This document shows, piece by piece, positions 26,968 through 54,796 of a stretch of 64,000 nucleotides of DNA; within the stretch, counting starts at the first letter, position 1; each line of letters opens with the position of its first letter. The translations under genes were made by a program, and so were the position numbers. Below the pieces are notes generated by a model. It was not told the DNA's origin. It did not search any database and saw only the letters and a list, made by a program, of their open reading frames with translations. Source of the stretch: an uncultured Bdellovibrio sp. (GTDB taxonomy: Bacteria > Bdellovibrionota > Bdellovibrionia > Bdellovibrionales > Bdellovibrionaceae); NCBI GenBank assembly GCA_963932905.1, contig CAWVRN010000016.1:32412-96411 (forward strand), written 5' to 3'.

Positions 26968-26993
26968 CTTAATTCTCCTTTATTTCTATTTTT

Positions 26994-30598: not shown

Positions 30599-30655
30599 GT
30601 TTTTTCCTTTGTTTGTTTCATTTTTTAGTTTGGATCTTTTGAGTATTTTGGTTCG

Positions 30656-30760: not shown

Positions 30761-30762
30761 AC

Positions 30763-32262: not shown

Positions 32263-32277
32263 ATTCCTCCTTTCACA

Positions 32278-36347: not shown

Positions 36348-36454
36348 AGGTAGACCCCTTTTTTGGTCTGCCGCTCGCCTGGTATTGGTAGAGAGACTTT
36401 TTAGTTTTTTATTTTATATCGTTCGCTGCTATTGAAGTGAGCGTTCGATATTTT

Positions 36455-37421: not shown

Positions 37422-37596
37422 AGAGCCTCCTATGTACCCATCATAATACATAACTGTATTATCTGAAACATCTTTCTTATCCTTATTATCGGCAGCATCT
37501 AACATAACTTAAGTCTCCTATATTTGTTTTGGCGCCATAACTGTCTTAAAACGCTCCCGATCTCAAACTGAGACAATCTCTAGCCCCCCGCTAGCG

Positions 37597-37977
37597 TTAC
37601 GTGCCTCTGGACCCCTTTGGAGGCTTTTGAACAGGCTTATCCTGAGTACGCGGCTTCGTTTTCGGCCCGGACGTTTTAGGTAATGGGACCTTCTTCATTT
37701 CCCAAGCTTCCGGCGCGACTACGATTGAAAGCCAGGAACCCCAAAAGTAATCCTTCGATGGAAGTTCTTTTGCGTGAAGCCACGCCACCACCACTTGTTC
37801 AGGCATACGGGTTGGAACGTATTTTACTCCACCTTGCCCGGACATATTCATGGGTGGTGCGGTGAAACCATAGCCAGCTCTTTCCTCAAGAAGTGACTTC
37901 TGATTGGTGCTCGCGCAACCGTTGATGAGACTACTCAAGAACACGAGTGAAATAAGAGTAAATACCTTCATCACCAT
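37597..37977 (-). CDS. traV: TraV-like lipoprotein
   Basis: Lipobox INGC; PTRMPEQVVVAW...VVAPEAW; follows traB. Confidence 0.75.
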   Translation of the reverse strand: MVMKVFTLISLVFLSSLINGCASTNQKSLLEERAGYGFTAPPMNMSGQGGVKYVPTRMPEQVVVAWLHAKELPSKDYFWGSWLSIVVAPEAWEMKKVPLPKTSGPKTKPRTQDKPVQKPPKGSRGT

Positions 37978-39190: not shown

Positions 39191-39192
39191 TT

Positions 39193-40113: not shown

Positions 40114-40795
40114 CAGATCGCCCGCGCTTAAGGCTCGTGATTTCGAGATACCATTCCTTGCCTTTAACTGGAGGGACGAGCTTCATCAGCATTTCAATGA
40201 CCTCGTCCACATGGCCCACGCTCTCGCTATTGGTGTATCTCTCTCTTTGAGCTATTGCGGTGACCTTGTAGAATCCCTCGCCGGTCGCAACGACTTCGCG
40301 ATCTGTAATCCGCAAAATCTCAGAAATATTTTCGCTCTTAACTGTCTCGCGCCACTCCCTGGCTTCTTCTTCAAACTGAATCTGAAGCTGAGGAGTCATG
40401 AAGTTGGATAAACGCTTGTACTGTTCATCAATGTTGGCGGCATTCACGTTCCCGAGCATACTTAAGAAGCTAAGCGCAGCATTAACCACATAAGTGTCCG
40501 ACACCGATTGCGGAGACGCGGTCGTAAAATCCATTACCCCTGGAGCCAAGATATATTCTTTTTCACGAAGCTTTGTTTCAAGACCGTGAATCTCGAACCT
40601 TGCGAGGGCAAAGTGCATGGCGAATGCCGCAATATGAATTGCGAGAATGTACTGAAGCGTTAAGCGCTGCTTTATCATCGCCGACTTAAAGGCCACGTAC
40701 TTTGGCAGAATGCGAAGATCTACCCCTTGGTAGACACCCACAGGTGGCACTGCCACCTGTGCCGCTTCAATTCCCTTATCCATCGCTGTTAGCAT
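40067..40795 (-). CDS. traE: TraE-like protein
   Basis: Single TM then ILAPG...LGNVNAANID; start moved to Met 40795; synteny. Confidence 0.7.
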   Translation of the reverse strand: MLTAMDKGIEAAQVAVPPVGVYQGVDLRILPKYVAFKSAMIKQRLTLQYILAIHIAAFAMHFALARFEIHGLETKLREKEYILAPGVMDFTTASPQSVSDTYVVNAALSFLSMLGNVNAANIDEQYKRLSNFMTPQLQIQFEEEAREWRETVKSENISEILRITDREVVATGEGFYKVTAIAQRERYTNSESVGHVDEVIEMLMKLVPPVKGKEWYLEITSLKRGRSDGFKPSANGGKTNGR

Positions 40796-41024
40796 CTCGT
40801 TTACCTTTCCTTTTAGGTTTTGCATCAGGACTTGGACTCTGGGGCTCAATCCTTTCAGCAGCATGGTTTTGAGCAATGACATCCAGGTACTTGCGAGGCA
40901 AAATCCACGTTTCAACGCGCTCAATGATCCAGTAGCGACCATCTCTAGATAGTTTTGCGCGAGTATTGAAATTCGGTTTCCGGTCATATGTTTTTGCCCC
41001 TTGTTCGTCGGTTTGGTTGTCCAT
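40776..41024 (-). CDS. Small hypothetical protein
   Basis: GAGGGAG RBS then MDNQTDEQ...; fills the gap between traL and traE. Confidence 0.55.
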   Translation of the reverse strand: MDNQTDEQGAKTYDRKPNFNTRAKLSRDGRYWIIERVETWILPRKYLDVIAQNHAAERIEPQSPSPDAKPKRKGKRDANSDG

Positions 41025-41065
41025 AGTTCTCCCTCTTGGTTTGTTGTTGTTTTCATTTCTTCCTC

Positions 41066-41380
41066 TCAATCTGAAAATCTGCGGTCGTTGCTCTTCGGAT
41101 TCACAAGGCCGGGAAGCTCCATCCGAAGGCGCGAAAAGGGCCAGTGAAAGAAAATTCCTTTTGGATATTTCTTTTTAATCACTGGTCCAAACCCCAGACA
41201 CAAACTCAGCAAAGTGAACATCGTTCCCCACGAGTAGAAGAGGACTCCAAAGACAAGAATGATGAAGAGCGCGATGAAGACATCCGACAGTTCCCAAATA
41301 TCGAAAACCATAATTGGCGAGTCGATGGTTTGGCTCACCAGGGATGAGTATTTTGCCTTCAAGAGCTCTTGCTTACGCAT
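41066..41380 (-). CDS. traL: TraL-like protein
   Basis: TIDSPIMVFDIWELSD, two TMs, KKKYPKGIFFH. Confidence 0.75.
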   Translation of the reverse strand: MRKQELLKAKYSSLVSQTIDSPIMVFDIWELSDVFIALFIILVFGVLFYSWGTMFTLLSLCLGFGPVIKKKYPKGIFFHWPFSRLRMELPGLVNPKSNDRRFSD

Positions 41381-41816
41381 TTAAACTCCTCGGGCTCACA
41401 ATATGATTTAGTGAAAACACCCCGCCACCACCGCCGATGTCGAAAATGTTCTTAACCCATGTAGGCGCAGTGCCGAGGACCAGTGCCGCAACGATACAGA
41501 GTACAGCGATTCCAAATCGTTGCTCTTTCAAGTTCCAGCCTGCCGACATCACGCAGAGCCCAGCAAAAATCCGCGCTCCCCACGAGAAGAGCACCGAATC
41601 CACAATACGAAGCAGCGTTCCCGCCGCTTCGAGTTTGTCGCTGGCATCAGCTCCGGGAATTTTAGTTCCCGCAAAAGCATTCGTGTGCGAAAGACAAATG
41701 AGAAGAATGGTAACTAGAATAAAAAAGTACCACTCCTCATGTCTTCGAGGGTTCGGACCCCTCACTTGAGAGCCGTGGATTAATGATCCACACAATAAAA
41801 GGCGTTCTCCGAGCAT
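41373..41816 (-). CDS. Conjugative pilin (TraA/VirB2/TrbC-like)
   Basis: Long leader ending NAFA, two hydrophobic helices; directly before traL. Confidence 0.7.
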   Translation of the reverse strand: MLGERLLLCGSLIHGSQVRGPNPRRHEEWYFFILVTILLICLSHTNAFAGTKIPGADASDKLEAAGTLLRIVDSVLFSWGARIFAGLCVMSAGWNLKEQRFGIAVLCIVAALVLGTAPTWVKNIFDIGGGGGVFSLNHIVSPRSLNA

Positions 41817-41928
41817 AGGTAATCTCCTATCCTTGCTCGAAGTCAGCTCGCCGTTTTGTGGTAGAGAGACTTCTTTTGTTTTTCTTTTGAGCCTATTTGT
41901 GGTGGTGGCTCATTTTATTTTTATAAAA

Positions 41929-42681
41929 TCAATTCGCCGCTTTCAATAGTCGAAGGATCTCGTCGAATTCGTGATATCCTTCAATGGCTGGCAAAAGTGC
42001 TTTCCGCTTTGTGTCCGCAATCAGCAGAAATGGCACACCTTTGATCCCATGTTTTTTTAGATCACTAGGATCAGCTCTTGAGATCGGAACAATTCTTTCT
42101 GCATCCGGCACGGGACCGCTATCTACTTGCAAAGCTTCGACATGAAATCCGCCGTCTTGAAGTTTCTTTAGAACCTGAAACATTCGTCGGCAATGAGGAC
42201 AGGTGGATTCAAAATACATCCTCAAGCGAAAGCGTGACGGATCAAGATCTACATTTTGCTCTTTTACTTTCGGCGGAGCTGGCGCCACCGATACTACATT
42301 TGATGGAACCGTCATCTCGCCATTTTTTGCCATGTACTCAGCCATTCGCTCTTGAAGCTTTGTTTGAAGATCATTCTTCTTCTTCATCAATTCAAACCAC
42401 TGCTTGATATTGTCGTCCGTCGGATTTCTTGCGACCTCCATAAATGGCTCCGGTGGCGTGTAGTCTCCCTCCTTGAAGAATTCCTTATTCTTCGGATCAA
42501 GGAACGTCTTCCACGGAAATTTGCCGTCTTGCTTATCCGTCAGACTCGGCTCTTTTTTGGGAGCGTCTTTTGAGCTTTGCTTATCGCCCCAGAAGTCGAT
42601 CTTAGAGTCGAAGTATTCTAAATTTTCTGCTTGGGCAAAAGATGACAAAAGCAAAAAAAGAATCGTTTTACGAATTACCAA
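41929..42681 (-). CDS. Thioredoxin-fold conjugation protein (TraF/TrbB-like)
   Basis: TTG after AGGAGG; signal; ARNPTDDNIKQW; YFESTCPHC; GVP. Confidence 0.75.
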   Translation of the reverse strand: MVIRKTILFLLLSSFAQAENLEYFDSKIDFWGDKQSSKDAPKKEPSLTDKQDGKFPWKTFLDPKNKEFFKEGDYTPPEPFMEVARNPTDDNIKQWFELMKKKNDLQTKLQERMAEYMAKNGEMTVPSNVVSVAPAPPKVKEQNVDLDPSRFRLRMYFESTCPHCRRMFQVLKKLQDGGFHVEALQVDSGPVPDAERIVPISRADPSDLKKHGIKGVPFLLIADTKRKALLPAIEGYHEFDEILRLLKAAN

Positions 42682-43837
42682 GTTGAACCTCCTTCGAATC
42701 AATTTCTCCTCGAATCGCTCTCGCAATTCGTGCATCTTCCAGAGATTGAAAAACCTTTGGATGCTTAACGCCGTCGTTCACAAATGAAGCCCACTCGATA
42801 CTTGGAACTCGGCCCCGGATTCCTGAAACGCAATTCGGACAACCTTCTTCATGCCTCATGCGCATTTCACTTAAAATCCCCGGATGATTCTTTGAAAACC
42901 AATCAGTCACCTCGACGGATGGTTTTTCTGCACACTCAGTACAAAGTTTTTGCTCAAGTCTCTGCGCAACCGAAAGGCGCAAATTGGATTCTAAGACGAG
43001 TCTTTCAACGCCAAGGCCAGCAAGTCGCTCGATTACTTCTAGCGATCCATTTGCATGAAGAGTGGTAAAGACCAAGTGCCCAGTTTCCGCTGCTTGAAAA
43101 CAAAGTCTCGCGGTTTCGGCGTCTCGCACCTCTCCAACGAGGATAACATCAGGATCTTGCCGAAGCACTGACCTGAGAGCGTCAGCAAAGGTCATCTTGC
43201 GATTTACTTGCACTTGATTGAGGCCCTCAATGCGATATTCAATCGGATCTTCCAAAGTCACAATGTTAAGACGCTTTGGATTTAACGCCTTAAGCAGCGC
43301 ATAGAGAGTTCTCGTTTTACCACTTCCCGTAGGACCTGAAATTACAATGACTCCATCCTCGTATTGCAGGGCTCTTTCAAGCATCTTTTGCTCCGATTCT
43401 AAAAAGCCAAGTTCTGAAAGATTGAAGCTCGCATCAAGATTCAAAAGTCGCATAACAACTTTTTCGCCAAAGTGAGTTGGCAAAAGACTCACACGCAAAT
43501 CAAGCCGTAGCGACGGCAATGAAGCCCTGCCGTCCTGCGGTTTACCGCTCACTCCGATAGAAAGTCCGAAGATCCGTTTTGCTTCTAGAATCAAGCTCTC
43601 TCGGTGCTGAAGCTCTATTGACCTCACGAGAACGAGGTTCCCGTCTACGCGAAGTCTAAAATCAATTCCAAGCTCGGTCGGTTCAATGTGAATGTCACTG
43701 GCACCTTTTGCTTTGGCTTCGGTCACCAAGTCCTTAAGAAGTTTTGCGTAAGGTCCGACATCAGAAAGTAATTGTTCTGCCGTTCGACGTTTGGCGACCG
43801 TAATGCCGTGCTCGTTTTGAAGTTTTAAGCTTGTCAC
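42668..43837 (-). CDS. GspE/PilB family secretion ATPase
   Basis: ASDIHIEP, PQDGR, GPTGSGKT, TLEDPIEY, LRQDPDVILVGEVRD, TGHLVFTTLH, CxxC..CxxC; GTG 43837 after GGAGG. Confidence 0.9.
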   Translation of the reverse strand: MTSLKLQNEHGITVAKRRTAEQLLSDVGPYAKLLKDLVTEAKAKGASDIHIEPTELGIDFRLRVDGNLVLVRSIELQHRESLILEAKRIFGLSIGVSGKPQDGRASLPSLRLDLRVSLLPTHFGEKVVMRLLNLDASFNLSELGFLESEQKMLERALQYEDGVIVISGPTGSGKTRTLYALLKALNPKRLNIVTLEDPIEYRIEGLNQVQVNRKMTFADALRSVLRQDPDVILVGEVRDAETARLCFQAAETGHLVFTTLHANGSLEVIERLAGLGVERLVLESNLRLSVAQRLEQKLCTECAEKPSVEVTDWFSKNHPGILSEMRMRHEEGCPNCVSGIRGRVPSIEWASFVNDGVKHPKVFQSLEDARIARAIRGEIDSKEVQLGNS

Positions 43838-46800
43838 TTCGCACCTCCGCACGCAGCAGGAATGGTAAGGCTCGCGGCTTTTGCTTGAGCGGCTGCTGGC
43901 ATATCCTTGCAGGCAAAAGTGCGACTCCAAATCACGAACAGATAGCCTTTGAGTTTTCCGTTTACGAGCCTCATTGTCTCGCGGGCATTTACGACCGATT
44001 CCAAAATTCCCACGTTCTGACCTTCTCGAAAGCAGGAACTGGATTGCGGATAAATCATCTGCCACTTTTCGTCTGGACTATTGGGCATGGAGTGCAGCAC
44101 TTCTACAGAAAGACTCTTGATACGAGAGGCCACCATCAACGCGCCCGCCATTGATGCCGGACCTGAGTAAGTGCCATAGCGCGGATAAAAGACGCCCCAT
44201 CCGTTACAAACCGAATGAGTGCTTGGCGGAAACATATTGATCTTTGGAACGTCGAAACTACACATGGCCGAGTCAGGGGAAGGAGCGCCGCCCCCTTCCC
44301 CTGTAATAGAAGTCGCGGCACCCTTGAGGAGGCATAACTTTGGCGCAAGCCCCGATGCTAAGAACAGAGGCTGAGTCATGTCATTCTTGCCAGTATTCCA
44401 GTGCGCTCCGAAATGTTCGCTCATTCCATCAAAACAAACTTTCTCCATTCTTGTGCCACCGGCAGGCATTGTTTGAAATGTCAGTCCCGCAAGAGGTACT
44501 GCAATTGTTCTGGCCTGAAAACTCTGAGTGTCGTCATCGGCCTCAGTCCCAAAGGGCTTAGGAAAAATCTTAGCAAGCTGAGCTGACGCTCCTGGGATTC
44601 CTGAAAAATAACTCGTCTTGGGCTCCGGCCACACTTCAATGAAAGTCTGTGGCACATAGTAAGAAATCGCAGCACAGGGTCTTGGAGGATATCCACAAGT
44701 GCATCCCCCGATATTTAATTCCAGGCATGAAGTGAACGCTGGCGTACTTGCTACGGTACAAATATTCGGAATTTCCGCTTGAACATTGCCCGCGAGGAAG
44801 AGGGAGGCTGCTATAGCGCGAAGATTCTGAGCGAAATGCTTAATTCTCTCTACAGCTCCTCCCTTCTTCGTTACACGCAGCATTTCAAGCACTGCCTCAT
44901 GCTTCGTATTGATGAATCTCAAGAAATCAGGCTTAAGATAAAGTTTTAAAAACTTCGTCTCGATTCCATCAAATACTTGAGCGAACGCCTCGAAAGTTCG
45001 AAGCCTTGAGAACTCGCGGCCTGTGATGAGATCTTCTTTTCGCTTTGCTCTGGAGATCGCCTCATTCAAACTTGAATTCTGTGAATCGAATCCTCCGGCG
45101 AGTAAGTTCAGTTTTGCCGACTGCGCTGTTTCTGACATTGAGTGCGATTCAACCTCGCGATCCTCTTTTCCCGCCAATTCTTGGAAAAGCTTGATTGTTT
45201 CCGAATCTGAAGAGTGACAAGCAATTCTTGTTCTAAAGTTTTGCATAAGAACAAGAGCGGCTCTTTGGCTTCCTACCGAATCCATCAGTGAACTGACCGA
45301 TTGAGTCGCGACAATCACGGCGGGCTTTGATTCCCGAGCCTTTGCCATAAAAGTGTCGTCACCGATTGTGCCACCACCTCCGCAGGTCACAACATCTTGG
45401 TACTCATCAATTATGAGCGCTGTCGTGCAGAGTTTTTCTTGCTCTTTCAATTCACTCAGCATATTCAATACGGCCTGCTGATAGTGAAGCTTGATGAATG
45501 TTCCCATTGAGCGCGCAAGTCCTGGTTGATTGATGTCAAAGAGGAGAATTTTTCCTTCACGAATCAACTGCTCCATTGAGCGAATCGTGAGGTTCTCCTC
45601 CTTCGGACATAAAACGCGATTTGCCGCGAACTCCTGGAACTGATTGATGAATGCCGTACTTGTTGCGACGATTCCAGATCTTACGCGGTCCTCAAGCTGC
45701 GAGTATTCGTTTTCGAAATACTCCATAGCCCGTTCAATATTAAATCGCTCTTCTTCAGTGAAGGCGCCCGTATCAAGACGTTTTCGTAAATCGTCTGACA
45801 AATTCTCTTTCGAAGCACGAACGATAGCTCGATAGAGATCAAGCAACGTAAAGTACCCATGTTCTGCCGCACAATAGACGATGGCGTTCTTAATCAAGTT
45901 CGAAGATGAAATATCCCAGAAGGGTGAGTCCGAAGACTTACCCATAAAATTTACAGCAGCAGCTCTAACCATTTCGGCTAGCTCGGTGAACTTTGAATTC
46001 CGAAGCGGGTTTTCGATATAAACGGGGTTAAAGCTCACCGAACCTCGAAGAGAGATTTTGACGATTTTATCCCCAAGGCCTGCACGTCTGATAATTTGCT
46101 CTGCGTCCGCAAGGAAAGTCCGTTTAGGATCAATCGCAAGGATCGCGGGTGAGCTTTCACCGGCCCGCAAGATTTGGCGCAAATAGCGAAGCACGGTCCC
46201 TTGGGTTTTTCCACTACCGATACTTCCTGAAATCATAATCCCACCGTTGAGGCCACGGCTCGGAATTTTAACCCAACTCTCCGACTCTCCTGAATTCTGA
46301 ACAACTGAATGCGTAAGTTGTCCTGGCGTTGTCCCCAGAACGAGTTCGCCTTCTTCAACTTCGGGTGCATCCAGCTTGTGAATGTCATTAAACGAAAACT
46401 TTAGTTTCGCGATTCCGCGCAAGAACATGCGTATAATTAGACCGATGGTGAAAGCAATGTTCGCACTTAGGAGGGCGACAATCCCTGAAGGCTGAAACCC
46501 CTCTGTAAACCGCAGGAAGATTGGCCCAATGAAGTCAGCGATTTGTTTTTTACACGCGAAGTAAGTGACGGCGCTGGTGACAACAGAAACGCACTCGGCT
46601 CTTCCGAATTTTAAGTGTCTTGATTTCCCTTCAAGAACAGCGAGTTTACTTCCTTGTTTTTCAAGTCCAATGGATCTTTTAAGATAAATCGAACCGAACG
46701 AAATATTCACCATCGCGCAAGAGATTGTGATCCAAAAGAGCTTCGCATTCGCCTCTAGCTGCTGAAGCGCAAACTGCAGCAGATCTGGGTGAAGCCTCAG

Positions 46801-46896
46801 ATGTGCGAGATATAAATACACGAGTCCAAATCCGGCGAGCGCCATGAGCGCGAGCGAGAGAGGGACATCACTCTGTGCAGTTTGTGTTCGTGCCAT
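43834..46896 (-). CDS. Type IV coupling protein (TraD/VirD4-like) fused to a C-terminal TraU-like Cys-rich domain
   Basis: N-terminal TMs, GSIGSGKT, IDPK, IIDEYQ, ATQS; after ~aa 700 signal-like segment then SC....GGCTC, SYYVP..FIEV, WGVFYPRYG, KWQMIYP. Confidence 0.8.
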   Translation of the reverse strand: MARTQTAQSDVPLSLALMALAGFGLVYLYLAHLRLHPDLLQFALQQLEANAKLFWITISCAMVNISFGSIYLKRSIGLEKQGSKLAVLEGKSRHLKFGRAECVSVVTSAVTYFACKKQIADFIGPIFLRFTEGFQPSGIVALLSANIAFTIGLIIRMFLRGIAKLKFSFNDIHKLDAPEVEEGELVLGTTPGQLTHSVVQNSGESESWVKIPSRGLNGGIMISGSIGSGKTQGTVLRYLRQILRAGESSPAILAIDPKRTFLADAEQIIRRAGLGDKIVKISLRGSVSFNPVYIENPLRNSKFTELAEMVRAAAVNFMGKSSDSPFWDISSSNLIKNAIVYCAAEHGYFTLLDLYRAIVRASKENLSDDLRKRLDTGAFTEEERFNIERAMEYFENEYSQLEDRVRSGIVATSTAFINQFQEFAANRVLCPKEENLTIRSMEQLIREGKILLFDINQPGLARSMGTFIKLHYQQAVLNMLSELKEQEKLCTTALIIDEYQDVVTCGGGGTIGDDTFMAKARESKPAVIVATQSVSSLMDSVGSQRAALVLMQNFRTRIACHSSDSETIKLFQELAGKEDREVESHSMSETAQSAKLNLLAGGFDSQNSSLNEAISRAKRKEDLITGREFSRLRTFEAFAQVFDGIETKFLKLYLKPDFLRFINTKHEAVLEMLRVTKKGGAVERIKHFAQNLRAIAASLFLAGNVQAEIPNICTVASTPAFTSCLELNIGGCTCGYPPRPCAAISYYVPQTFIEVWPEPKTSYFSGIPGASAQLAKIFPKPFGTEADDDTQSFQARTIAVPLAGLTFQTMPAGGTRMEKVCFDGMSEHFGAHWNTGKNDMTQPLFLASGLAPKLCLLKGAATSITGEGGGAPSPDSAMCSFDVPKINMFPPSTHSVCNGWGVFYPRYGTYSGPASMAGALMVASRIKSLSVEVLHSMPNSPDEKWQMIYPQSSSCFREGQNVGILESVVNARETMRLVNGKLKGYLFVIWSRTFACKDMPAAAQAKAASLTIPAACGGAK

Positions 46897-47054
46897 TAAG
46901 CCCCCATTTTTTTGTTGGTTGAAGCTGCCTTCAAATAGGCGAGCGCCTTAAGAACTCGGGCTGTTCTTTTCTCTAAAGATTTATTTCTTATTTTTTCACC
47001 CTCAGAAACCTGGCCCAAAATTCTAAGAATCGTTTGTTCAATTGTTTCATTCAT
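46896..47054 (-). CDS. 52-aa hypothetical protein
   Basis: Below ORF-track cutoff; GAGGGG RBS; TAATG overlap with T4CP start. Confidence 0.5.
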   Translation of the reverse strand: MNETIEQTILRILGQVSEGEKIRNKSLEKRTARVLKALAYLKAASTNKKMGA

Positions 47055-47069
47055 AACCCCTCCGGTTAG

Positions 47070-47297
47070 TCATTTGACTTCGTTGTTGTTTCGTTTCGGA
47101 CTCACATAGCGTTTATTGCGCGGCCAATCTTCAACTCCTTGAAATCGTCCGTCGTGAAATACGAATCGAAAAGTTCCATAGGAGAAATCGGCGCCGTGTT
47201 CGTCTGCATACTGTTTTTGAAGGCGTCTTGCGGCCTCTTCCAAAACGGCTTCGTCCGTAAGGTCTTTGACTACAGTGCTTGTTTTGCTTTCGATCAT
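47070..47297 (-). CDS. Small protein, YezD/DUF2292-like
   Basis: YGTFRFVFHDGRFQGVE; ATGA overlap. Confidence 0.55.
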   Translation of the reverse strand: MIESKTSTVVKDLTDEAVLEEAARRLQKQYADEHGADFSYGTFRFVFHDGRFQGVEDWPRNKRYVSPKRNNNEVK

Positions 47298-47488
47298 CCG
47301 ACCACTACCTTTCCCGCCAGCAGGCGTTCTAATTTCTCAATCTCGGCAACCAGGACTTTGTTATAGACAAGCTCCTTAACCGAAAGATTTCCGTACCAGT
47401 TGCGAATTTCCGTTTTAATTCTCTCGATGGCGCTCGGCCCCGGAGTTGCCACATATTCCAAATTTTCATTTCGCTTTGTATGGCTCAT
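47294..47488 (-). CDS. Small hypothetical protein
   Basis: GAGG RBS, MSHTKR start. Confidence 0.55.
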   Translation of the reverse strand: MSHTKRNENLEYVATPGPSAIERIKTEIRNWYGNLSVKELVYNKVLVAEIEKLERLLAGKVVVG

Positions 47489-47501
47489 AGCCAACCTCTC
47501 T

Positions 47502-47789
47502 TTAAAAAATATTTCTGTACTGCATCGCCTGCATTCGAGCTTGCTCAATTTTTTCCTGTTGTGGTGGCGCAATAAAAAGCACGCACCCAATTCCTCGAAT
47601 CACGTTTCCCAGAGTTCTCAATACCCAAAGCCCTGCAATTTTCTGCCAAGCTTGCTTGGCTCCAAAAACAAGCTTCATAAAAAATTCGTAGATTTTAAGT
47701 CGCCAAGGTTTCCAGAATGGATTTGTAAATAGCCATTCGCCCTCGTTTGAACCGAGGATCACAGTTTGGTTCATTACGTTTTGTTTCAT
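47502..47789 (-). CDS. Small hypothetical protein
   Basis: ATGA overlap with upstream gene. Confidence 0.55.
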   Translation of the reverse strand: MKQNVMNQTVILGSNEGEWLFTNPFWKPWRLKIYEFFMKLVFGAKQAWQKIAGLWVLRTLGNVIRGIGCVLFIAPPQQEKIEQARMQAMQYRNIF

Positions 47790-48043
47790 GCGGCACTTCC
47801 TTTTTTATTTTTCGAGTTCTGATTCAGAGGAAGCTGTTCAACGACTGACTGAGTCTTTATGGATTTCATTTGCGCAACGGCCTCTGCTGCCCACGGGGGA
47901 ATTGGCAGCTCATCGCCGGATGATTTTGATTTTCTATAGGTAAGAAGATCAGGCGCGTAGTTGCAGCACAGACAGTGTGAATGGGTGACAAGCTTTTCGA
48001 GTGTTCGCTCGTTGCATCGGGGACAAGTTCTTAACGTACTCAT
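47786..48043 (-). CDS. Zinc-ribbon small protein, first gene of tra operon
   Basis: AAGGAG RBS then MSTLRTCPRC...CLCC. Confidence 0.65.
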   Translation of the reverse strand: MSTLRTCPRCNERTLEKLVTHSHCLCCNYAPDLLTYRKSKSSGDELPIPPWAAEAVAQMKSIKTQSVVEQLPLNQNSKNKKGSAA

Positions 48044-48098
48044 TTTTTTGCTCTCCTTATAGTGAAGGACATTTCTAAGTCCTTTCATCTTTTAGAAT

Positions 48099-48114
48099 TG
48101 CAAAGAGGTAACCA
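48099..48114 (-). promoter_or_regulatory. sigma54 -24/-12 promoter of the tra operon
   Basis: TGGTTA-CCTCT-TTGCA, exact GG-N10-GC spacing, 56 nt upstream of the first start codon. Confidence 0.7.
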
Positions 48115-48186
48115 GAGCCGCGCACAGGCTAAGTTGTTGGAAAGATTGGTTTTTGATTTTAAGTTGTGCGCGCGGTAAAAGTCGAT

Positions 48187-48297
48187 TCGTCGAGAACTCG
48201 CGAATTGAAATCGAAACGGCAATGTTCTCTGTTGAACTTTCGCTAGAGATTCGACGGCCCGTGCCCAACCTCTTCCAGCACTATCGAATTCTCGTCA
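48187..48297. promoter_or_regulatory. Upstream activator-like repeats of the tra promoter
   Basis: TCGTCGAGAACTCGCGA (48187), CTGTTGAACTTTCGCTA (48229), CTATCGAATTCTCGTCA (48281); same motif as 54294-54394. Confidence 0.7.
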
Positions 48298-48417
48298 ATT
48301 TTAACTCAGACTCAATTAAACGCGTCTATACAGAAGCGTCCGCTGCACAACGCGCACAAGTGTCATGCCTTAACGCCAAAAGAATTTGCGTGTAAAGCCG
48401 CAAAGATAAAACTCCAA

Positions 48418-48642
48418 ATGAAGAAGAATTTAAGTGAAATCGAAATTAAAATCTCTATCTGCAAGCTAAGTGCAGACAAAAGAGAGGAGCTGAGTCAGAA
48501 GCAACTTTTGAAGGTTTTTTGGCGCGGATGGCAGAAGGCAACTCCTGTACAGAAAAAGCGCCTACTTCGCAGAGTTTTCGATGTAATTTATGCTGGAGTT
48601 GACGGAATGACGGCACACTACTGGATATATCCCAAAAAATAA
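48418..48642 (+). pseudogene. Possible remnant of a large serine recombinase C-terminus
   Basis: FWRGWQKATPVQKKRLLRRVFDVIY resembles the C-terminal tail of large serine recombinases; no catalytic domain. Confidence 0.35.
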
Positions 48643-48689
48643 AGAAGTCGACTCTGACCTCAGCAAGCAATATTTTGAAACCAAGCTAA

Positions 48690-50252
48690 CTAGGAATCCC
48701 GGACAGCACTCATAACCATTCTCACAGAGTTATCCACCATGCGCCTCAAGTCACCTTTGCCGTTGGCGTGGTCTTTTCGACTAACGACGTCCATGCTTTC
48801 CCAAATCCCCAAGGCCTGGCACTGACTGCGTAGGGATGACCGAGCCACTCCAAGCTTCCTGGCGGTCTCAGACAAGTTATATTCGCTTGCTTGGTATGTC
48901 TTAAGGATAAGTGTTCTAACTTCGTTTTCATGACGAGCATTCATTTGCTCAAGAGATTCAAGGGTTGTCACGTTTTCAACATTCGCAGCACCTTCAAGCT
49001 CCCCGTATTTCTCGATATGCTCTGGCAAGATGATTGGGCCGCTTACTAAGACCGAAAGTCTTTCGATTAAATTTTCCAGCTCGCGGACATTTCCAGGCCA
49101 CGAATAGGCTCGAAGCATATCAAGCGAATCGGGATGCAACTGTTTGGGTACGCCGTCAGATTGTGATGGTCGTCGTTTTTCTAGAAAGAACTCGCATAAG
49201 ACTTCAACATCGTTGGGCCGCTCAGCAAGTCTTGGCAGATCAATCTTGATCTGCTTCATCCGATAGATCAAATCAGCCAAAAACTTGTCTTCATTTACGA
49301 GGACTTTCAAGTGCGGCTTTGAGGCGAATACCAATCGCACATCAACATGTTTTTCGGTGCTACCGCCGACTCGTCGAACTTTTCGATCCTGAATAAATCG
49401 CAATAGCATCGCCTGCGCTTCGTCACTCAAATGATGAACTTCATCTAAGAAAACGGTTCCGCCATTAGCCACCTCAAGGAGACCGATTTTTGATTCAGCT
49501 CCAGTGAAAGCACCTTTTTCGCTCCCGAATAATTCGCTAGCGATAAGTTCCGATTTTTTGAATTGCGTGCAATCAATTGTACGAAACTGTTTCTCTTTTC
49601 GATCTGAATTCTGATGAATCGCTCGGGCAAACAACTCTTTTCCAGTTCCCGTTTCTCCGTAAATTAAAACTGATAAATCTGATTTCGCTGTTTGCAAAAC
49701 AAGATCTGCGGCCGCTTTCATTTCACGATCAACAGATACAACTCCGATTTTTTTGAGAGAGTCAGGCACTTGACTCATGCGGCGAGTGCGATTTCCCAGG
49801 AACCCATTGAATTTGGAGCGAAACTTCGTCAGAGCTTCAGTGATAAAAATTTGCAGCTTTTCTTGCTGCCCGACGAATTCCTTATAGAGGAACTTGTCAG
49901 CGCCATTTTTTAGCCATAAGCGAAGGCTCTCTGGTGTTGTATCCGACGACATCATAACTATCTCGATATAAGAGTTCACTCTTTTGATCGGACGTATGAA
50001 GTCTGCTCCTAAAGTAGTCTTCTCTTTTGATTCATGAAAATGATGATCCATAAAAACCAAAAAGACGTTGAAGGGATTTTTCTTTATCGAATCAAGGGCC
50101 AGCACTGGATGCGAATGAAACTCGACATCGAAAGCGCGCTCTGCTCCAAAGGCTGAATCGAGCGATATCTTGAGCCCGTCACGAAAGCAGCTTTCGTCAT
50201 CTACAAAAATAACTCGTGGTTGTTCCATAGGACCCTCCCTCAATGCGTTCAA
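48690..50252 (-). CDS. sigma54-dependent response regulator (NtrC-like bEBP)
   Basis: REC (VDDE, FMDH, K), GETGTGKE, SELFGSEKGAFTGA, FLDEV, WPGNVREL, Fis-type HTH. Confidence 0.93.
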   Translation of the reverse strand: MNALREGPMEQPRVIFVDDESCFRDGLKISLDSAFGAERAFDVEFHSHPVLALDSIKKNPFNVFLVFMDHHFHESKEKTTLGADFIRPIKRVNSYIEIVMMSSDTTPESLRLWLKNGADKFLYKEFVGQQEKLQIFITEALTKFRSKFNGFLGNRTRRMSQVPDSLKKIGVVSVDREMKAAADLVLQTAKSDLSVLIYGETGTGKELFARAIHQNSDRKEKQFRTIDCTQFKKSELIASELFGSEKGAFTGAESKIGLLEVANGGTVFLDEVHHLSDEAQAMLLRFIQDRKVRRVGGSTEKHVDVRLVFASKPHLKVLVNEDKFLADLIYRMKQIKIDLPRLAERPNDVEVLCEFFLEKRRPSQSDGVPKQLHPDSLDMLRAYSWPGNVRELENLIERLSVLVSGPIILPEHIEKYGELEGAANVENVTTLESLEQMNARHENEVRTLILKTYQASEYNLSETARKLGVARSSLRSQCQALGIWESMDVVSRKDHANGKGDLRRMVDNSVRMVMSAVRDS

Positions 50253-51640
50253 GCTTCTTTCGCCGCAAGACTAAGCTGAACGCCGGTTTGTACTTTTGCA
50301 TTTCGATTCATCGACATCGGCAAAAAAATTCTGACTGCGGTGCCGACTCCTTCCTTAGAAGATATCAAAATTCTGCCATTGTATTTTTCGATTATTTTCT
50401 TGGCCCACTGTAAACCCAAACCTTTGCCGTTGGGTTTACCAAAAGACCCACCTTTTTCTAAGATCGTCTTTAAAACTGACTCCGAAATTCCAGAACCGTT
50501 ATCGACAATTGAAATGCAGCACTCATTCGCAATTCGTGTGCAGTTTACGTCAATGCTTCCCCGGTCAGAAACGGCATAGAGTGCGTTGTCGATTAAGTTT
50601 GAAATAATCCGTTTGAAGTCACTGACTTGCATTTCAATGAAGGTATCCTCGGTATTTAGTTTTGTTTGGACGGACACTTGTGGCGTCTGCCTACACATCA
50701 GGCTTTTTTCAGCAACTATTTCGTTCAAGGCAAGATCGACAGACATCGGAAGTTTTTGTATCGGCACTCTGTACTCAGAGCTTTTGCTGGAGGCTGTGTA
50801 TTGGCTGATAACATCGTTTGCGATGTCACTGATCCTCTGCGCCGAGTGATTTAAAACACCCTTGATCGTCGGGTCGAGATGAACTTGTGCCGCATTGAGC
50901 GCCACCTGAAGACTCACAATCGGTGAGCGAATATCATGTGCAACTTGTCTTGCAACATCAAGCGCCGCTTTTGCTTCGGCTGCTGCCTTAGTTACTTCAA
51001 ATTGGTAACTCAAGTTTTCGGCCAAAGAGGAGAATTCACTAATTTTAAATTTTGGTGTTTTTTTCTTGTCGCCCGTTTGGGTTTCTAAGATCTTCATCAA
51101 TTCATTAAGCTCGATTCGAATTCGTGAAAATCCGATTGAAAGACCAGCAAACAATATTACGGCAAGAAGTACGAATCCGATTGCGTTCTTCCCTGCGTTT
51201 TTCCAAATTCCTGCAATTAGATCCGAATTGTCGAACGTAATCGAGATATGTCCCATCCAATTCGAAGCATCCTCAGAAAAGTAGAGATCCGTATCCATGC
51301 GATGAAGTCCTGATGAGGAAGTTTTCAGCTTATTGCAACTTTGAATTGTTTCTGAGATCGACTTAATTTCGATGCAGAAGATTTGTGAGTTCTGCGCAAG
51401 TTCGTTCGCCCGAATTCTTGCTTCAATAAGACTTCCTTGAATAAGCGGTTGGCGAACGACCGCTGCGAAAGTTTCAAATGTGAGTTTCTGACTATCGAGA
51501 CGGGAAGTTTTGTTAACTCGATAGTCGTTCCACGCCAACAGTCCGCTAATGGCGGTGCTGACAAGGAGGACGATTGGAATAAAAATTCTCAGAAAGTATC
51601 GTTGAATAGATCTTGTCGGAGATTTCCCTAGAATTCCCAC
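50249..51640 (-). CDS. Sensor histidine kinase
   Basis: Two TMs around a periplasmic domain; AHDIRSP, NLIDNA, DNGSG, GKGLGL. Confidence 0.93.
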   Translation of the reverse strand: MGILGKSPTRSIQRYFLRIFIPIVLLVSTAISGLLAWNDYRVNKTSRLDSQKLTFETFAAVVRQPLIQGSLIEARIRANELAQNSQIFCIEIKSISETIQSCNKLKTSSSGLHRMDTDLYFSEDASNWMGHISITFDNSDLIAGIWKNAGKNAIGFVLLAVILFAGLSIGFSRIRIELNELMKILETQTGDKKKTPKFKISEFSSLAENLSYQFEVTKAAAEAKAALDVARQVAHDIRSPIVSLQVALNAAQVHLDPTIKGVLNHSAQRISDIANDVISQYTASSKSSEYRVPIQKLPMSVDLALNEIVAEKSLMCRQTPQVSVQTKLNTEDTFIEMQVSDFKRIISNLIDNALYAVSDRGSIDVNCTRIANECCISIVDNGSGISESVLKTILEKGGSFGKPNGKGLGLQWAKKIIEKYNGRILISSKEGVGTAVRIFLPMSMNRNAKVQTGVQLSLAAKEA

Positions 51641-53085
51641 TACAATCCCTTCACAAGATGGAGTCTCGGTGTATAGCGGAAAGTAGCCTCTTCAGAGATC
51701 ATGTTGGTTTGGCCGATAATGTAAAGCGGAACACGCCATCCCGGAACCATCAGCTGCTCTTTACGGAGCTGCTCATTGATCTGCTGAAACAGTTCACTTC
51801 TGACAGTCCAATTTTCTTCTTGTCTGGCACGCTTGTATTTTTCGGCAAGAGCCGGACCAATATAAGTTCCAAAATCTTTTACAAGAAATGTCGGGAGAAG
51901 AGCAATAAATCCTTCGGGATCATTAAACCCACCAGCCCATCCACCAAATATTACGTCAGGTTTTTTCTCAACTATTTTCGTCATTTCAGATGGAGAAATT
52001 TTGATAATCTCAATTTGGAAGCCGTGCTCTTTCGCAATTGCTTGAGCGTCATTTCCCTTAAGAAAGTCATCGAATGTAGCGCCTATGAACGCAAGCCTGA
52101 GTGGTTCTGTTTTTTCATATTTTTTATGCGTAATCTTTGGAGCTTGTGTAGCTGCTAAATGACCCGCAACTCCTTTGGGAATGACGCCGGTTGCTCGCTC
52201 AAGTTCCAATTTCTTACAGCCCTTATCGAGGATCTCTTCAATCAATCCCATCGCTCGGATGCGCATTTCCGGTGTATTGAAATGAGTTCCGTGCGGATGC
52301 CACCACGCTGATGTTTGAGCATAGCTTATTTGGTTCACTGTTTTGAGCTTTTCAAATCCGCTCACTTTTTGCATACCGACCTTTGTGGATAGGGTCGCAC
52401 CAGGAACGTAATCAGGAAGACCGACGGCGGGCACATTGAGATCATGATCACCAAAGAAAACAAGCTGCCATTCGCGGATGCTGATAGCTGACGATTTTGG
52501 ATATTTCTCATTTACTTCGAGATTCCAATTCGCACCTTTTTTTAAAAGACGATAAGGTCCTGAGCCAACGAGGGGTTCTGAAGAATCTTTATCGAAGCTC
52601 CAATCAATAGGAACGACACCAACTTGGTCTCGACTTAGAGCTTTAAGGATCGACACGTTGGGCTCTTTAAGGCGAATAATGAGGACGTCTGAAGCTGGGA
52701 CTTCGATGGATGAAATGCTGCCGAGAAAATTACTCGACTGGGATTTTTTCTGAATGACACGATCAATGGTATATTTAATGTCTTTGGCTTCGAGCTTTTT
52801 CCCATTGGAAAAAAAGCGATCTTTTCTGATTTTGAATTTAATTGTGAGACCCTTGTCCTCAAACGACCAACTCTCAGCAAGGCCCGGAGTAACATTACCC
52901 ATCTTATCGGTATCAACCATAGGCTCGAGAATTTGACCCAATACAATGTGCTCTGCGAATTGATTAACCTCAGCGGGATCGCGGGGAAATGTTGGCGGTA
53001 CATATCCATATTTTTTTGGTGCTGCCGAAACCATTGATGATGTCATAAAAATAATTCCTCCTATGAGAACAAGCCACCTTTTCAT
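51640..53085 (-). CDS. Family-5 (OppA/DppA-like) solute-binding protein, no permease nearby
   Basis: Signal peptide; PGLAESW..., FKIR..RFFSNG..LEAKDIKYTI, VGSGPY. Confidence 0.85.
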   Translation of the reverse strand: MKRWLVLIGGIIFMTSSMVSAAPKKYGYVPPTFPRDPAEVNQFAEHIVLGQILEPMVDTDKMGNVTPGLAESWSFEDKGLTIKFKIRKDRFFSNGKKLEAKDIKYTIDRVIQKKSQSSNFLGSISSIEVPASDVLIIRLKEPNVSILKALSRDQVGVVPIDWSFDKDSSEPLVGSGPYRLLKKGANWNLEVNEKYPKSSAISIREWQLVFFGDHDLNVPAVGLPDYVPGATLSTKVGMQKVSGFEKLKTVNQISYAQTSAWWHPHGTHFNTPEMRIRAMGLIEEILDKGCKKLELERATGVIPKGVAGHLAATQAPKITHKKYEKTEPLRLAFIGATFDDFLKGNDAQAIAKEHGFQIEIIKISPSEMTKIVEKKPDVIFGGWAGGFNDPEGFIALLPTFLVKDFGTYIGPALAEKYKRARQEENWTVRSELFQQINEQLRKEQLMVPGWRVPLYIIGQTNMISEEATFRYTPRLHLVKGL

Positions 53086-53882
53086 TAACTGGCCTGCTTT
53101 CCTGCAATCTCAACCAACTTCTTAGCAAATGAAGTTAGCTCTTGATCCTCAAATGCCTCTGTGTTTTGTCGTAAGAGGTCTTGATATTTTTGATTTGTTT
53201 CTCCAGTTGAGCGCTGGAACTGAACCATTCGATACAACGCCCACAACGAATGCAGCCTGCCGATTGGAGGTCTCTTTGTTCCCTGAAAGGGCGCATGAAC
53301 CTCGTTATAGTCAAATGGTTGATTCACTAGCCGATCGAGCAGATTCACAAGAAATAATTCTTGATGGGCCATTTCGTGAACAACAGAAACGGCCAGTTGT
53401 TGCACTGTTTGCTGTCTGACCCCATCCCCAATTAAAATTAATCCGAATATATGGGGATGCGAGGCGCTTCTGAAATTCACGCCCCTTACCCGCAGAAATC
53501 CACTGATATTTTCTTTTCGCAACGACGAAAGATCTTTGTCCGCCTGATCAACTAACATCAGTGCTTCTTGAAGTTTACTTCGTGTCTCAACTTCGAAAGC
53601 CCCGATACTCGAACCTTCGTAATCGACAAAGAATGTTGCTTCAATAAGGCTTTTCGCGGCAACACTCAGTTGGAGTGGATCAATGGCCTGACTCAAATTT
53701 GGCAACGAAATTTGATCGGGGTGAACTTTTCCGTAAAACCCCATGCACAACGCTGAAAGACTCTTAGCAAGGGGATCGACCTGCAATCCAGTTGCTAAAC
53801 GTCTTCGAAAAGAGGGAGCGATATCTTGCAGACACCACTCCCCGCGGCTCAATTCTGAGAGGATTCGTTCAATCAGACTCAT
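53085..53882 (-). CDS. HExxH-motif protein (alphaKG-HExxH/TIGR04267-like putative peptide-modifying enzyme)
   Basis: SASHPHIFGLI, VVHEMAHQELF, APFQGTKRPPIGRLHSLWA; no signal peptide. Confidence 0.8.
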   Translation of the reverse strand: MSLIERILSELSRGEWCLQDIAPSFRRRLATGLQVDPLAKSLSALCMGFYGKVHPDQISLPNLSQAIDPLQLSVAAKSLIEATFFVDYEGSSIGAFEVETRSKLQEALMLVDQADKDLSSLRKENISGFLRVRGVNFRSASHPHIFGLILIGDGVRQQTVQQLAVSVVHEMAHQELFLVNLLDRLVNQPFDYNEVHAPFQGTKRPPIGRLHSLWALYRMVQFQRSTGETNQKYQDLLRQNTEAFEDQELTSFAKKLVEIAGKQAS

Positions 53883-53883
53883 T

Positions 53884-54192
53884 TTAGAGAGCGCTCGCTT
53901 TTATGATGTCAGCAGCTAAAATTTTGAAGGCACCATTTTCAAAAACTGAGAGATCAAGCTCGCCATCTTGTTTAACCTGAAAAGCAAGATCGCTCGCACT
54001 TTTGGCCTGCGCAAGTTCAGTCAATTTCTGCAAATCAATTTTCATCGTTTGTGCAGCGGATTGAGTTAGGGAATAGTAAATACCTTTTTGAAGAGAGTTA
54101 AGATCAATCGCCTTTTCTCCACACGCATGCGCGGCCTCGATTCCCGCTGCTAGAGCCGCTATTGCACCTATAGTACTTTTTAATATTTTCAT
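53884..54192 (-). CDS. Small secreted protein, putative signal-peptide precursor
   Basis: GGGGG RBS; Sec signal ending AHA|C; first gene of the operon. Confidence 0.7.
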   Translation of the reverse strand: MKILKSTIGAIAALAAGIEAAHACGEKAIDLNSLQKGIYYSLTQSAAQTMKIDLQKLTELAQAKSASDLAFQVKQDGELDLSVFENGAFKILAADIIKASAL

Positions 54193-54231
54193 CGAACCCC
54201 CTTTTTGATTTAAAACCTACGAAATTCTCTA

Positions 54232-54247
54232 TGCAGAGACGGTGCCA
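54232..54247 (-). promoter_or_regulatory. sigma54 -24/-12 promoter of the signalling operon
   Basis: TGGCAC-CGTCT-CTGCA, near-consensus, 40 nt upstream of ATG 54192. Confidence 0.85.
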
Positions 54248-54293
54248 ACTGCCTAATGATTAAACAGTGTTTGATGATGAAATATCCTTAAAT

Positions 54294-54394
54294 TCGTCGA
54301 GAACTCGCCAATACCTATTTATTCAACGATAGCGGTCGTCGAAATCTCGCCAAAGGCGGTGTCTTTTAGGCTAACTGGTGTCGAAATCACGCCA
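54294..54394. promoter_or_regulatory. Three 17-bp activator-site-like repeats at exact 42-bp spacing
   Basis: TCGTCGAGAACTCGCCA (54294), TCGTCGAAATCTCGCCA (54336), GTGTCGAAATCACGCCA (54378). Confidence 0.8.
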
Positions 54395-54796
54395 CTTTGT
54401 TGTCCGCGCTATGAAGTTTTTTCATGCCGACTATGTTTTCACTATTATTGAATCTATGTTTTGCCCTTGACGAGGAGATGTCTCGGTTGCAGCAGAACCA
54501 ACAGACGCGATACCAATATAACTCGATCTCGTGTCAGATTGCTGAGAAGCTAAAGTCACAACTCACTATCGCCAAAACCATTTTCAAAATTCAGAAATAC
54601 ACTTCACAAACGGTGAAGTGTGAACTGTGTCCTCAAAGACAGGATTTTTGTAGAAAATTTGTCCAAACTTTACGACGTTAGAATAGCGAGAGGCTCTTTG
54701 ATTGATCTGGTTTTGCCAGAGATGGAGTGACAATGGGTGTTGTCCTTATCCGTGTACAGCTTGCATCGAAATTCAGACAAAGCTATTATTCGTTGG

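Follow-up and report, generated by a model that had tools for sequence, protein, structure and literature searches.

A five-gene module with a predicted peptide hydroxylase as a candidate sigma-54 switch for transfer of a conjugative element in Bdellovibrionota

We analysed a 64,000-nucleotide stretch of DNA (the window; positions 32,412 to 96,411 of contig CAWVRN010000016.1, assembly GCA_963932905.1) from an uncultured Bdellovibrio sp., which carries an integrative and conjugative element (ICE). The last 5.7 kb of this element, at its right end and immediately upstream of the operon for the type IV coupling protein (T4CP) and further tra genes, hold five genes, for a small secreted protein (pre102), an HExxH enzyme, a periplasmic solute-binding protein (SBP), a membrane histidine kinase and an NtrC-type activator of sigma-54 promoters. 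Judged from its sequence, this module very probably serves as the transfer switch of the ICE, with the activator acting on two sigma-54 promoters. The data strongly support the module being one operon under a sigma-54 promoter, and the adjacent T4CP/tra operon being under a sigma-54 promoter of its own. Control of both operons by the activator, as the original prediction proposed, is the best reading of the conserved boxes and sites, of the linkage to type IV secretion system (T4SS) genes, and of the recurrence of the arrangement with lineage-specific sites. We also lean towards the fuller proposal, in which the five genes are the transfer-control module of an ICE in a Bdellovibrionota host and work through the whole circuit set out below.

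The two promoters carry the regulatory evidence. The -24/-12 boxes that had been predicted for the module and tra operons are both present (Table 1). As the box pattern alone occurs in the window about as often as expected by chance (4 matches, 3.7 expected), the weight rests on conservation. In an alignment of the module promoter from five genomes (A1), TTGGCACC and CTGCA are invariant in 5/5 while the 4-nt spacer between them varies, and three TGGCGnnnnnTCGAC sites, spaced 42 bp apart, are likewise present in 5/5. In the corresponding alignment of the tra promoter (A2), the GG at -24 and the -12 block CTTTGCAATTCTAAA are kept in 4/4 genomes; here the three site positions are conserved and individual copies tolerate mismatches. 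Each promoter is preceded by three sites of a 16-bp palindrome, TGKCGA-N4-TCGMCA, and not by one. The 17-bp repeat that was originally noticed before both promoters is real, and forms the first 17 nt, identical in the first two copies, of a 21-nt repeat family (48185-48205; 54292-54312, 95% identical; 54334-54354, 71%). The 15-mer GCGAGWTYTCGACGA has 3 exact matches, against 0.5 expected at up to 2 mismatches.

The palindrome is enriched in the window, with 16 matches against 7.9 expected, a number that none of 100 shuffles reached. If up to 2 mismatches are allowed, the host genome (4.55 Mb) has 590 sites, of which arrays of at least three stand only at the two ICE promoters; pairs are found in four other places. 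No regulator other than the response regulator of the module is encoded with these sites, and rpoN is present in the host genome (G000). Sigma-70-like promoter sites between 46.8 and 54.8 kb were not above chance (9, with 10.5 expected). The tra operon is probably a transcription unit apart from the module, because a terminator-like hairpin follows the activator gene. Its first gene most likely begins at the conserved ATG at 48042 (85 aa), rather than at 48088, behind a conserved ribosome-binding site, as alignment A2 indicates.

Two further features were seen in this DNA. The palindrome recurs a seventh time (50301-50316, 1 mismatch) within the 3' end of the kinase gene, some 50 bp ahead of the activator start. 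The core of this copy is also found in locus L017; the copy could be an internal regulatory site or be kept merely through conservation of the coding sequence. The stretch from the tra -12 box to the ribosome-binding site (48050-48087) contains an inverted repeat, AAGGAC..GTCCTT, whose arms differ in one relative yet still pair (AGAGGACC..GGTTCTCT), and which is a possible 5'-untranslated hairpin.

All five module genes are present as predicted, tightly coupled on the minus strand upstream of the tra operon, with a 1-nt gap or an overlap of 1-4 nt between neighbours. The activator matches PF00158 (Sigma54_activat) with 189 bits, and GAFTGA can be read in its translation. The activator scores just under threshold for Response_reg (27.9 bits; threshold 30.2) and for HTH_8 (16.2 bits; threshold 22), and its sequence shows an acidic DD pocket together with a candidate acceptor Asp. 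Its true start is probably the ATG at 50228 (MEQPRV...), because the same start is assigned to the orthologue in several relatives. By reading the sequence, the kinase has two transmembrane segments around a periplasmic stretch of about 115 aa. A Pfam scan of the kinase gave only HATPase_c-type matches, with no Response_reg or Hpt domain. The SBP matches PF00496 with 99 bits, over profile positions 2-141 of 368 only, and matches the solved AapF structure over its full length (E 3.3e-25); its nearest solved relatives are binders of peptides, nickel/metallophores or opines. Pfam scans found no ABC permease or ATPase genes among the 29 longer open reading frames (ORFs) of the ICE, and the SBP thus appears to be an orphan beside the kinase. 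The two genes are adjacent in every complete module, the kinase following the SBP.

Table 1. Features of the element in the window, with positions, strand and basis of assignment (A1 and A2, promoter alignments).
Feature	Position	Strand	Basis or remark
Upstream activator site 1 of module, palindrome TGKCGA-N4-TCGMCA, 1 mismatch	54379..54394	minus	conserved block, alignment A1
Upstream activator site 2 of module	54337..54352	minus	A1; 42 bp from sites 1 and 3
Upstream activator site 3 of module	54295..54310	minus	inside 17-bp exact repeat common to tra promoter; A1
Predicted sigma-54 promoter of module operon, TGGCACCGTCTCTGCA (TGGCAC-N5-CTGCA)	54232..54247	minus	pattern scan and A1
pre102, predicted secreted small protein, 102 aa	53884-54192	minus	signal peptide about residues 1-24, A-x-A site; no family
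Predicted aKG-HExxH-type peptide beta-hydroxylase, 265 aa	53085-53882	minus	TIGR04267
Orphan periplasmic family-5 SBP, 481 aa	51640-53085	minus	PF00496; signal peptide
Membrane histidine kinase, 463 aa	50249-51640	minus	HATPase_c; H-box HDIRSP
Sigma-54 enhancer-binding response regulator, 520 aa	48690-50252	minus	AAA+ with GAFTGA; candidate REC and Fis-type HTH
Terminator-like hairpin and T-run just 3' of activator gene	48644..48661	minus	consensus scan only
Upstream activator sites of tra operon (48282-48297, 48230-48245, 48188-48203; 2 mismatches each)	48188..48297	minus	A2 blocks
Predicted sigma-54 promoter of tra/T4CP operon, TGGTTACCTCTTTGCA	48099..48114	minus	GG at -24; CTTTGCAATTCTAAA around -12
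Zinc-ribbon protein, first tra-operon gene	47786-48042	minus	Cys pairs CPRC and CLCC
Three small ORFs travelling with T4CP gene	47502-47789, 47294-47590, 47070-47297	minus	tra operon 5' part (47070..48042)
T4CP (TrwB)-TraU fusion	43834-46896	minus	Pfam/NCBIfam; 1020 aa
GspE/PilB-like ATPase	42668-44065	minus	Pfam/NCBIfam
TraF	41929-42735	minus	Pfam/NCBIfam
Pilin-like protein	41373-41816	minus	Pfam/NCBIfam
TraE	40067-41056	minus	Pfam/NCBIfam
TraK	39193-40113	minus	Pfam/NCBIfam
TrbI/TraB	37931-39190	minus	Pfam/NCBIfam
PIN/HTH pair	36455-37505	minus	Pfam/NCBIfam
TraC	33825-36347	minus	Pfam/NCBIfam
NikA/MobC-like relaxase partner	29619-29972	minus	Pfam/NCBIfam
Relaxase, MobA/VirD2-type	27785-29632	minus	Pfam/NCBIfam
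Tyrosine integrase (Phage_integrase)	25747-26967	minus	Pfam/NCBIfam
ICE, about 28.8 kb	25657..54427	minus	Pfam/NCBIfam matches, GC, comparison with another genome's copy

Matches to the HExxH protein were found in 11 of 60 related genomes (10/36 from the same family, 1/24 from other families of the order), a patchy distribution as expected of a mobile element. A scan using one genome per species gave 40 HExxH loci, 36 of which have Bdellovibrionota-type labels. A closer set of 27 loci (L027-L053), in which the HExxH protein is 35-94% identical over its full or near-full length, was distinguished from 13 more distant ones; a pre102-like small protein was detected in 23 of the 27. Seven loci of the closer set are cut by contig ends, and the other 20 were used for linkage. 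T4SS genes lie within 14 kb in 19 of these 20, and so in 20 of 21 informative loci with the window.

The module was seen in three arrangements relative to the transfer genes, which belong to two T4SS types: co-directional upstream of tra, divergent, and upstream of a different, TrbC/VirB4-type T4SS. In type A the order is small protein, HExxH enzyme, SBP, kinase, activator, a variable insert of 0.5-7 kb and the tra operon. In type B the activator comes first, and the module is placed divergently from the same tra family, before a tra set of 45% identity, or before the TrbC/VirB4-type T4SS. Single genomes can carry two modules of different types and with different DNA sites: one contig of genome G010 gives two matches, L046 lies on the same contig as L050, and a single metagenome-assembled genome is the source of L041 and L052.

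The same regulatory layout recurs with other sites. Type-B loci have an invariant TTGGC-N7-TTGCT box 50-75 bp before the activator start (9/9), with CTCCAA-N4-TTGGAG-like palindromes, or a variant of these, upstream of it. At L050, one palindrome family stands upstream of two divergent sigma-54-like boxes, which face the module and the tra genes. The VirB4-type T4SS is preceded by a conserved GGCAC-N5-TTGA box that has two CTGCAA-N4-TTGCAG palindromes in front of it. Each lineage has its own palindrome. That a site array and a sigma-54 box are kept before both the module and the T4SS while the sites themselves change is the strongest evidence for the activator driving the transfer genes.

Several observations weigh against this reading. 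The -24 element of the tra promoter is weak (TGGTTA here; CGG in 2/4 relatives; T before the GG in 2/4), and the GC that is canonical at -12 is missing from the VirB4-type box. The loci compared are related elements, and the 20 of 21 is not made of independent events. At one locus of the closer set, L040 (L039 is its truncated twin), the five genes have no T4SS gene within 10 kb upstream or 5.7 kb downstream; genes around them encode a toxin of the abortive-infection type, a reverse transcriptase and a chemotaxis receptor. A tblastn panel found no T4SS genes near the 13 more distant loci (HExxH identity 29-41%), most of which retain the HExxH, SBP and kinase genes, and the distant sets examined sit among housekeeping genes. 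Therefore, this type of sensor is not intrinsically tied to conjugation. The original prediction held that homologous operons unlinked to mobile elements would refute it; such operons are seen only among the distant sets and at one closer locus, L040. A fourth explanation of the locus, that the module is cargo without transfer control, its shared repeats being coincidental or meant for another protein, would fit L040 and is nevertheless very improbable, given triple-site arrays that are unique genome-wide to two promoters and conserved in relatives, the same arrangement with different sites in other lineages, and the T4SS linkage.

The relatives also differ in ways that touch single genes. Between activator gene and tra promoter (48089-48690 in the window; same position in L027-L037) lies a variable insertion spot of 0.5 to about 7 kb, occupied in L017 by a gene for a 1158-aa DEAD-box helicase and in the window by a 74-aa plus-strand ORF (48418-48642) of no family. 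A type-B SBP gene in L046 (10827-12278) has an in-frame stop, and is split into two ORFs in L023; the stop in L046 is either a pseudogene or an assembly error. At five distant chromosomal loci (L054, L057, L060, L062 and L064) the HExxH gene is followed by genes for unusually long histidine kinases (871-1123 aa). In two of these the kinase comes directly after the HExxH gene with no separate SBP match, and a fused sensor domain is possible in those two kinases.

What could the first two genes of the module make? The HExxH protein matches TIGR04267 (IPR026337) over residues 138-243 with 51.6 bits against a cut-off of 40. A profile built from 12 relatives matches the solved ChlH structure (8s5f, E 9.4e-9), aligning the HE..HQ and RPP.G.LH blocks, and H169, E170, H173, D183, R184, R204, P205 and H211 are invariant in the 12 sequences. 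By family, then, the protein is an alpha-ketoglutarate-dependent HExxH (aKG-HExxH) peptide beta-hydroxylase of the type found with peptides that are synthesised on ribosomes and modified after translation (RiPPs), with an activity that is predicted. On the TIGR04267 score above cut-off and the match to ChlH, it is not a protease-like enzyme.

A small ORF lies directly upstream of the HExxH gene in 23 loci. The pre102 protein itself has no Pfam or NCBIfam family, and only 32 clusters of its own family, all hypothetical, turned up among 5.8 billion proteins, which makes the family rare; a protein-atlas look-up gave a lead, at 0.76, to a lipoprotein cluster. Only Y40, A47 and D95 are invariant in 19 aligned relatives. 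D95 stands within a C-terminal motif, [A/L/M/S]-[R/A/S]-x-D, which takes the form A-R-x-D in 10/19 and exactly ARMD in 6/19; the copy in the window reads L-A-A-D. Four more distant HExxH genes have small signal-peptide ORFs upstream that end in ..R-V-D. According to a 2025 preprint (PMC12636437), two aKG-HExxH enzymes, PflC and PosC, hydroxylate Gln residues and oxidatively cleave the backbone at the conserved C-terminal ARMD motif of their precursors, and cleavage requires a small residue at the first position of the motif in PosA. Because PflC and PosC act at this motif, the C-terminus of pre102 is likely the site of enzyme action. Given the need for a small first residue in that account, the L-A-A-D of the window copy makes hydroxylation more plausible than cleavage.

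An AlphaFold2 model of pre102 (from a 19-row alignment) has residues 30-102 folded with a pLDDT of about 90, the signal peptide disordered and the motif in the last helix. Foldseek found no fold match for it in the PDB (best E 0.27).

The comparison with four related elements (L030, L031, L033 and L035) bears on which genes work together. From the element end through the promoter, pre102 and the HExxH gene, nucleotide identity is 50-73%; precisely where the SBP gene starts it rises to 79-95%, and it holds at that level through the kinase and activator genes. The rise (within 53050-54450) marks a sharp breakpoint of recombination between the HExxH and SBP genes. The pre102 and HExxH genes move as a unit, and therefore their pairing is supported. 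That pre102 is the substrate of the HExxH enzyme is, on these sequence comparisons, reasonably likely. The SBP does not follow the cassette, which argues against a signal-receptor pair of the specificity-group kind; if it reads pre102 at all, it must read the conserved features of pre102. A complex prediction of SBP residues 23-481 with mature pre102 (25-102) gave a score of 0.00 and a mark of 0.32, which weighs neither way.

In the circuit that we propose, the cytoplasmic aKG-HExxH enzyme would modify pre102 near its C-terminal [A/L]-R-x-D motif before Sec export, by beta-hydroxylation or, in the ARMD-bearing relatives, perhaps by oxidative cleavage of the backbone. The exported product, or a fragment of it, may then be a ligand or co-ligand of the orphan family-5 SBP, which would dock on the periplasmic part of the kinase, much as LuxP does on LuxQ and AioX on AioS, and set the balance between kinase and phosphatase. 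Once phosphorylated, the activator would bind the six sites and switch on its own operon, as feedback, and the tra operon. Our confidence is greatest for the modification of pre102, lower for its product as the ligand of the SBP, and lowest for docking of the SBP on the kinase. We put forward the exported product as ligand or co-ligand tentatively, as an idea that falls a little short of probable. Because a ligand-bound SBP can switch a kinase to phosphatase, a signal made by the element could also suppress transfer among cells that already carry it.

Quorum sensing from cell to cell would extend this circuit: a hydroxylated product derived from pre102 would leave the donor, accumulate with the density of ICE-bearing cells and be captured by the SBP, so that module and transfer are induced. 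The conserved promoters and site arrays, that is, all of the regulatory evidence, agree with such a scheme. It is also in keeping with a signal-like gene and its modifying enzyme being encoded on the element under an apparently autoregulated promoter, and with pre102 having a Sec signal peptide like the Phr precursors. Two module types with different DNA sites in one genome resemble orthogonal channels. However, the mature protein is predicted to be a compact fold of about 70 aa, with the conserved Asp in its C-terminal helix, rather than a short linear peptide. A protein of about 77 aa has no evident path of export through the outer membrane, and no export route or processing protease is encoded nearby. 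The SBP is 89-94% identical in proteins from elements where pre102 is only 47-50% and the HExxH enzyme 62-65% identical, and so lacks the co-variation of receptor with signal cassette that is seen in ComQXPA/Agr or Phr systems. Family-5 SBPs also bind nickel chelates and opines, and the best NCBIfam match and several of the top PDB matches of this one are NikA-type. Finally, the effect of the ligand could be the opposite, a change of the kinase to phosphatase that represses transfer, in the way that PhrI represses it in ICEBs1. Taken together, we consider it doubtful that the product of pre102 acts between cells as a quorum signal.

Several of these points suit a different role, in which pre102 is a periplasmic accessory protein (CpxP-, ExoR- or HbpS-like) and the SBP and kinase sense an external ligand or the state of pre102. 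Modification of pre102 would need O2, Fe(II) and 2-oxoglutarate, and its state could therefore report the physiology of the donor. The confidently predicted fold would suit such a protein, as would retention in the periplasm, which is the default for pre102, and production from an autoregulated promoter, as known for CpxP. So would an SBP that is conserved while pre102 varies and whose nearest named relatives include NikA and metallophore binders. There are also chromosomal, distant HExxH-SBP-kinase sets, and in six of them no pre102-like ORF was found upstream of the HExxH gene. On the other hand, the strict coupling of pre102 to the hydroxylase and the conserved R-x-D point to a modified C-terminus, which fits a ligand at least equally well, and the fold search gave no match to known periplasmic modulators. 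We regard an accessory role as rather unlikely.

It is improbable that pre102 and the HExxH enzyme make a RiPP-like product with some other role (an antimicrobial, an exclusion or a surface factor), the SBP, kinase and activator genes being merely co-transcribed with them. The characterised aKG-HExxH enzymes do belong to natural-product pathways (PMC12636437), and one relative (L061) lies apart from any SBP or kinase gene. Yet the HExxH-SBP-kinase order is kept across 29-94% identity, the module genes are translationally coupled, and Pfam scans found no immunity or export genes beside the pair in the ICE. At L061 (8752-13332), the distant HExxH gene stands beside a 70-aa ORF that has two LVDEVFGESRVNGVIID-like repeats, ends in ..R-V-N and lacks a signal peptide. 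Its neighbours encode a JmjC-domain protein, an MFS transporter and a MacB-type ABC pair, and the whole has the look of a natural-product cluster, not of a sensor locus.

We return to the proposed switch and compare it with known systems. LuxP-LuxQ-LuxO (AI-2, Vibrio) and AioX-AioS-AioR (arsenite) are like the module in having a transporter-less SBP beside a membrane histidine kinase and, as output, an NtrC-type sigma-54 enhancer-binding response regulator. They differ in that their SBPs are of the ribose-binding type whereas the module SBP is of family 5 (Opp/Nik type). The module kinase, unlike that of LuxPQ-LuxO, has no receiver or Hpt domain and is thus not of the hybrid-kinase phosphorelay kind. 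In the module, furthermore, the candidate ligand is gene-encoded, predicted to be enzyme-modified and made from the same operon, and the predicted target is a conjugation operon on a mobile element.

RapI-PhrI of ICEBs1, and pCF10 with the OppA-like PrgZ, share with the module an element-encoded Sec precursor, an Opp-family binder and transfer genes as the output. In these Firmicutes systems, however, the peptides are unmodified and imported to cytoplasmic receptors, and sigma-54 is not known to be involved; the module belongs to a diderm host, pairs its SBP with a kinase and includes a predicted RiPP-type hydroxylase. Operons of precursor and modifying enzyme (both candidates in the module), histidine kinase and response regulator, with precursor and enzyme as the fast-varying part, are what ComQXPA and Agr have in common with it. 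They are not known to have an SBP, their activator is of a different type, and their receptor sensor domain co-varies with the signal, whereas across the cassette swap the module SBP and kinase keep an identity of 89-94%. Control by acyl-homoserine lactones (TraI/TraR of Ti plasmids, ICEMlSymR7A) is likewise an element-encoded, positive-feedback circuit that gates transfer in diderms, but it uses a small-molecule signal, a cytoplasmic LuxR-type receptor and sigma-70 promoters.

The enzyme of the module resembles ChlH (8s5f), BpmH and PflC/PosC in its family HMM, in the HExxH and RPPxGxLH blocks and in the adjacent gene for a small protein, in the module a candidate precursor; the precursors of PflC and PosC carry a C-terminal A-R-M-D-like motif, as the pre102 family does (PMC12636437). 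The known members described there belong to natural-product clusters with radical-SAM, MNIO or GNAT partners and transporters. In contrast, the only partners in the module are the SBP, kinase and regulator, and pre102 has a signal peptide and a folded body. The parts of the module are of known kinds (SBP-kinase-sigma-54 systems, element-encoded conjugation signalling and aKG-HExxH RiPP enzymes), and their combination is apparently new. A literature search of limited reach found no sigma-54-controlled conjugation operon and no aKG-HExxH enzyme joined to an SBP and a kinase.

The rest of the element has the gene content of an ICE. Integrase, relaxase, coupling protein and mating-pair-formation genes all lie in one block, the minus-strand ORFs from 26967 to 54192 forming a single run, and GC is 0.44-0.48 within it against 0.38-0.41 in the left flank and the adjoining bin of the right flank. 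The ends, at about 25657 and 54427, are the limits of similarity to the ICE copy of another genome. A comparison of the ends gave no att direct repeat of at least 13 nt (the one match, of 12 nt, is located outside both junctions), the window has no tRNA genes, and no empty site was recovered in 9 same-genus genomes, where the right flank had no match. The element is thus an ICE by gene content, with ends placed by comparison alone. No Rfam family matched in the 20-56 kb part of the window.

Other observations concern the flanks and single tra genes. A repeat of about 380 bp (25285-25667; copies 94-95% identical) abuts the left end of the ICE and has one further copy in the window (21234-21609) and two on contig C1 of the host genome, with no RNA family match. 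Two copies of a second repeat (about 520 bp; 23846-24369 in the window) are likewise present on that contig. The C-terminal part of the T4CP fusion is Cys-rich and TraU-like, with a weak match to PF06834 (E 0.0016) below cut-off. As listed, the GspE-like ATPase ORF shares its first 232 nt with the fusion ORF, and the ATPase therefore probably starts further in. The PIN-domain and HTH_17 genes overlap in the middle of the tra genes and resemble a toxin-antitoxin-like or excisionase-like insert. Five DNA sequencing runs, from three studies (groundwater, activated sludge), contained at least half of the sampled words; no RNA run was listed.

Control of conjugation decides when genes spread. To our knowledge, known control in diderms works through acyl-homoserine lactones or stress repressors, and aKG-HExxH peptide hydroxylases have so far been known only from natural-product pathways. 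If the proposed switch is right, it would be the first sigma-54/enhancer-driven conjugation switch that our literature search found. The peptide hydroxylases would gain a role in signalling, and an Opp-family binding protein would act as the co-sensor of a kinase for a gene-encoded ligand. More speculatively, and in our view unlikely as yet, the module may represent a new class of diderm cell-cell signalling, in which a Sec-exported protein, hydroxylated or trimmed at its R-x-D motif by the RiPP-type enzyme, an Opp-family SBP, a kinase and a sigma-54 activator would time conjugation, and orthogonal channels with different activator sites and T4SS types could co-reside in one Bdellovibrionota genome. 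With two promoters, six sites and five genes, the circuit is compact and directly testable, and it occurs in lineages of predatory bacteria in which gene transfer has been little studied.

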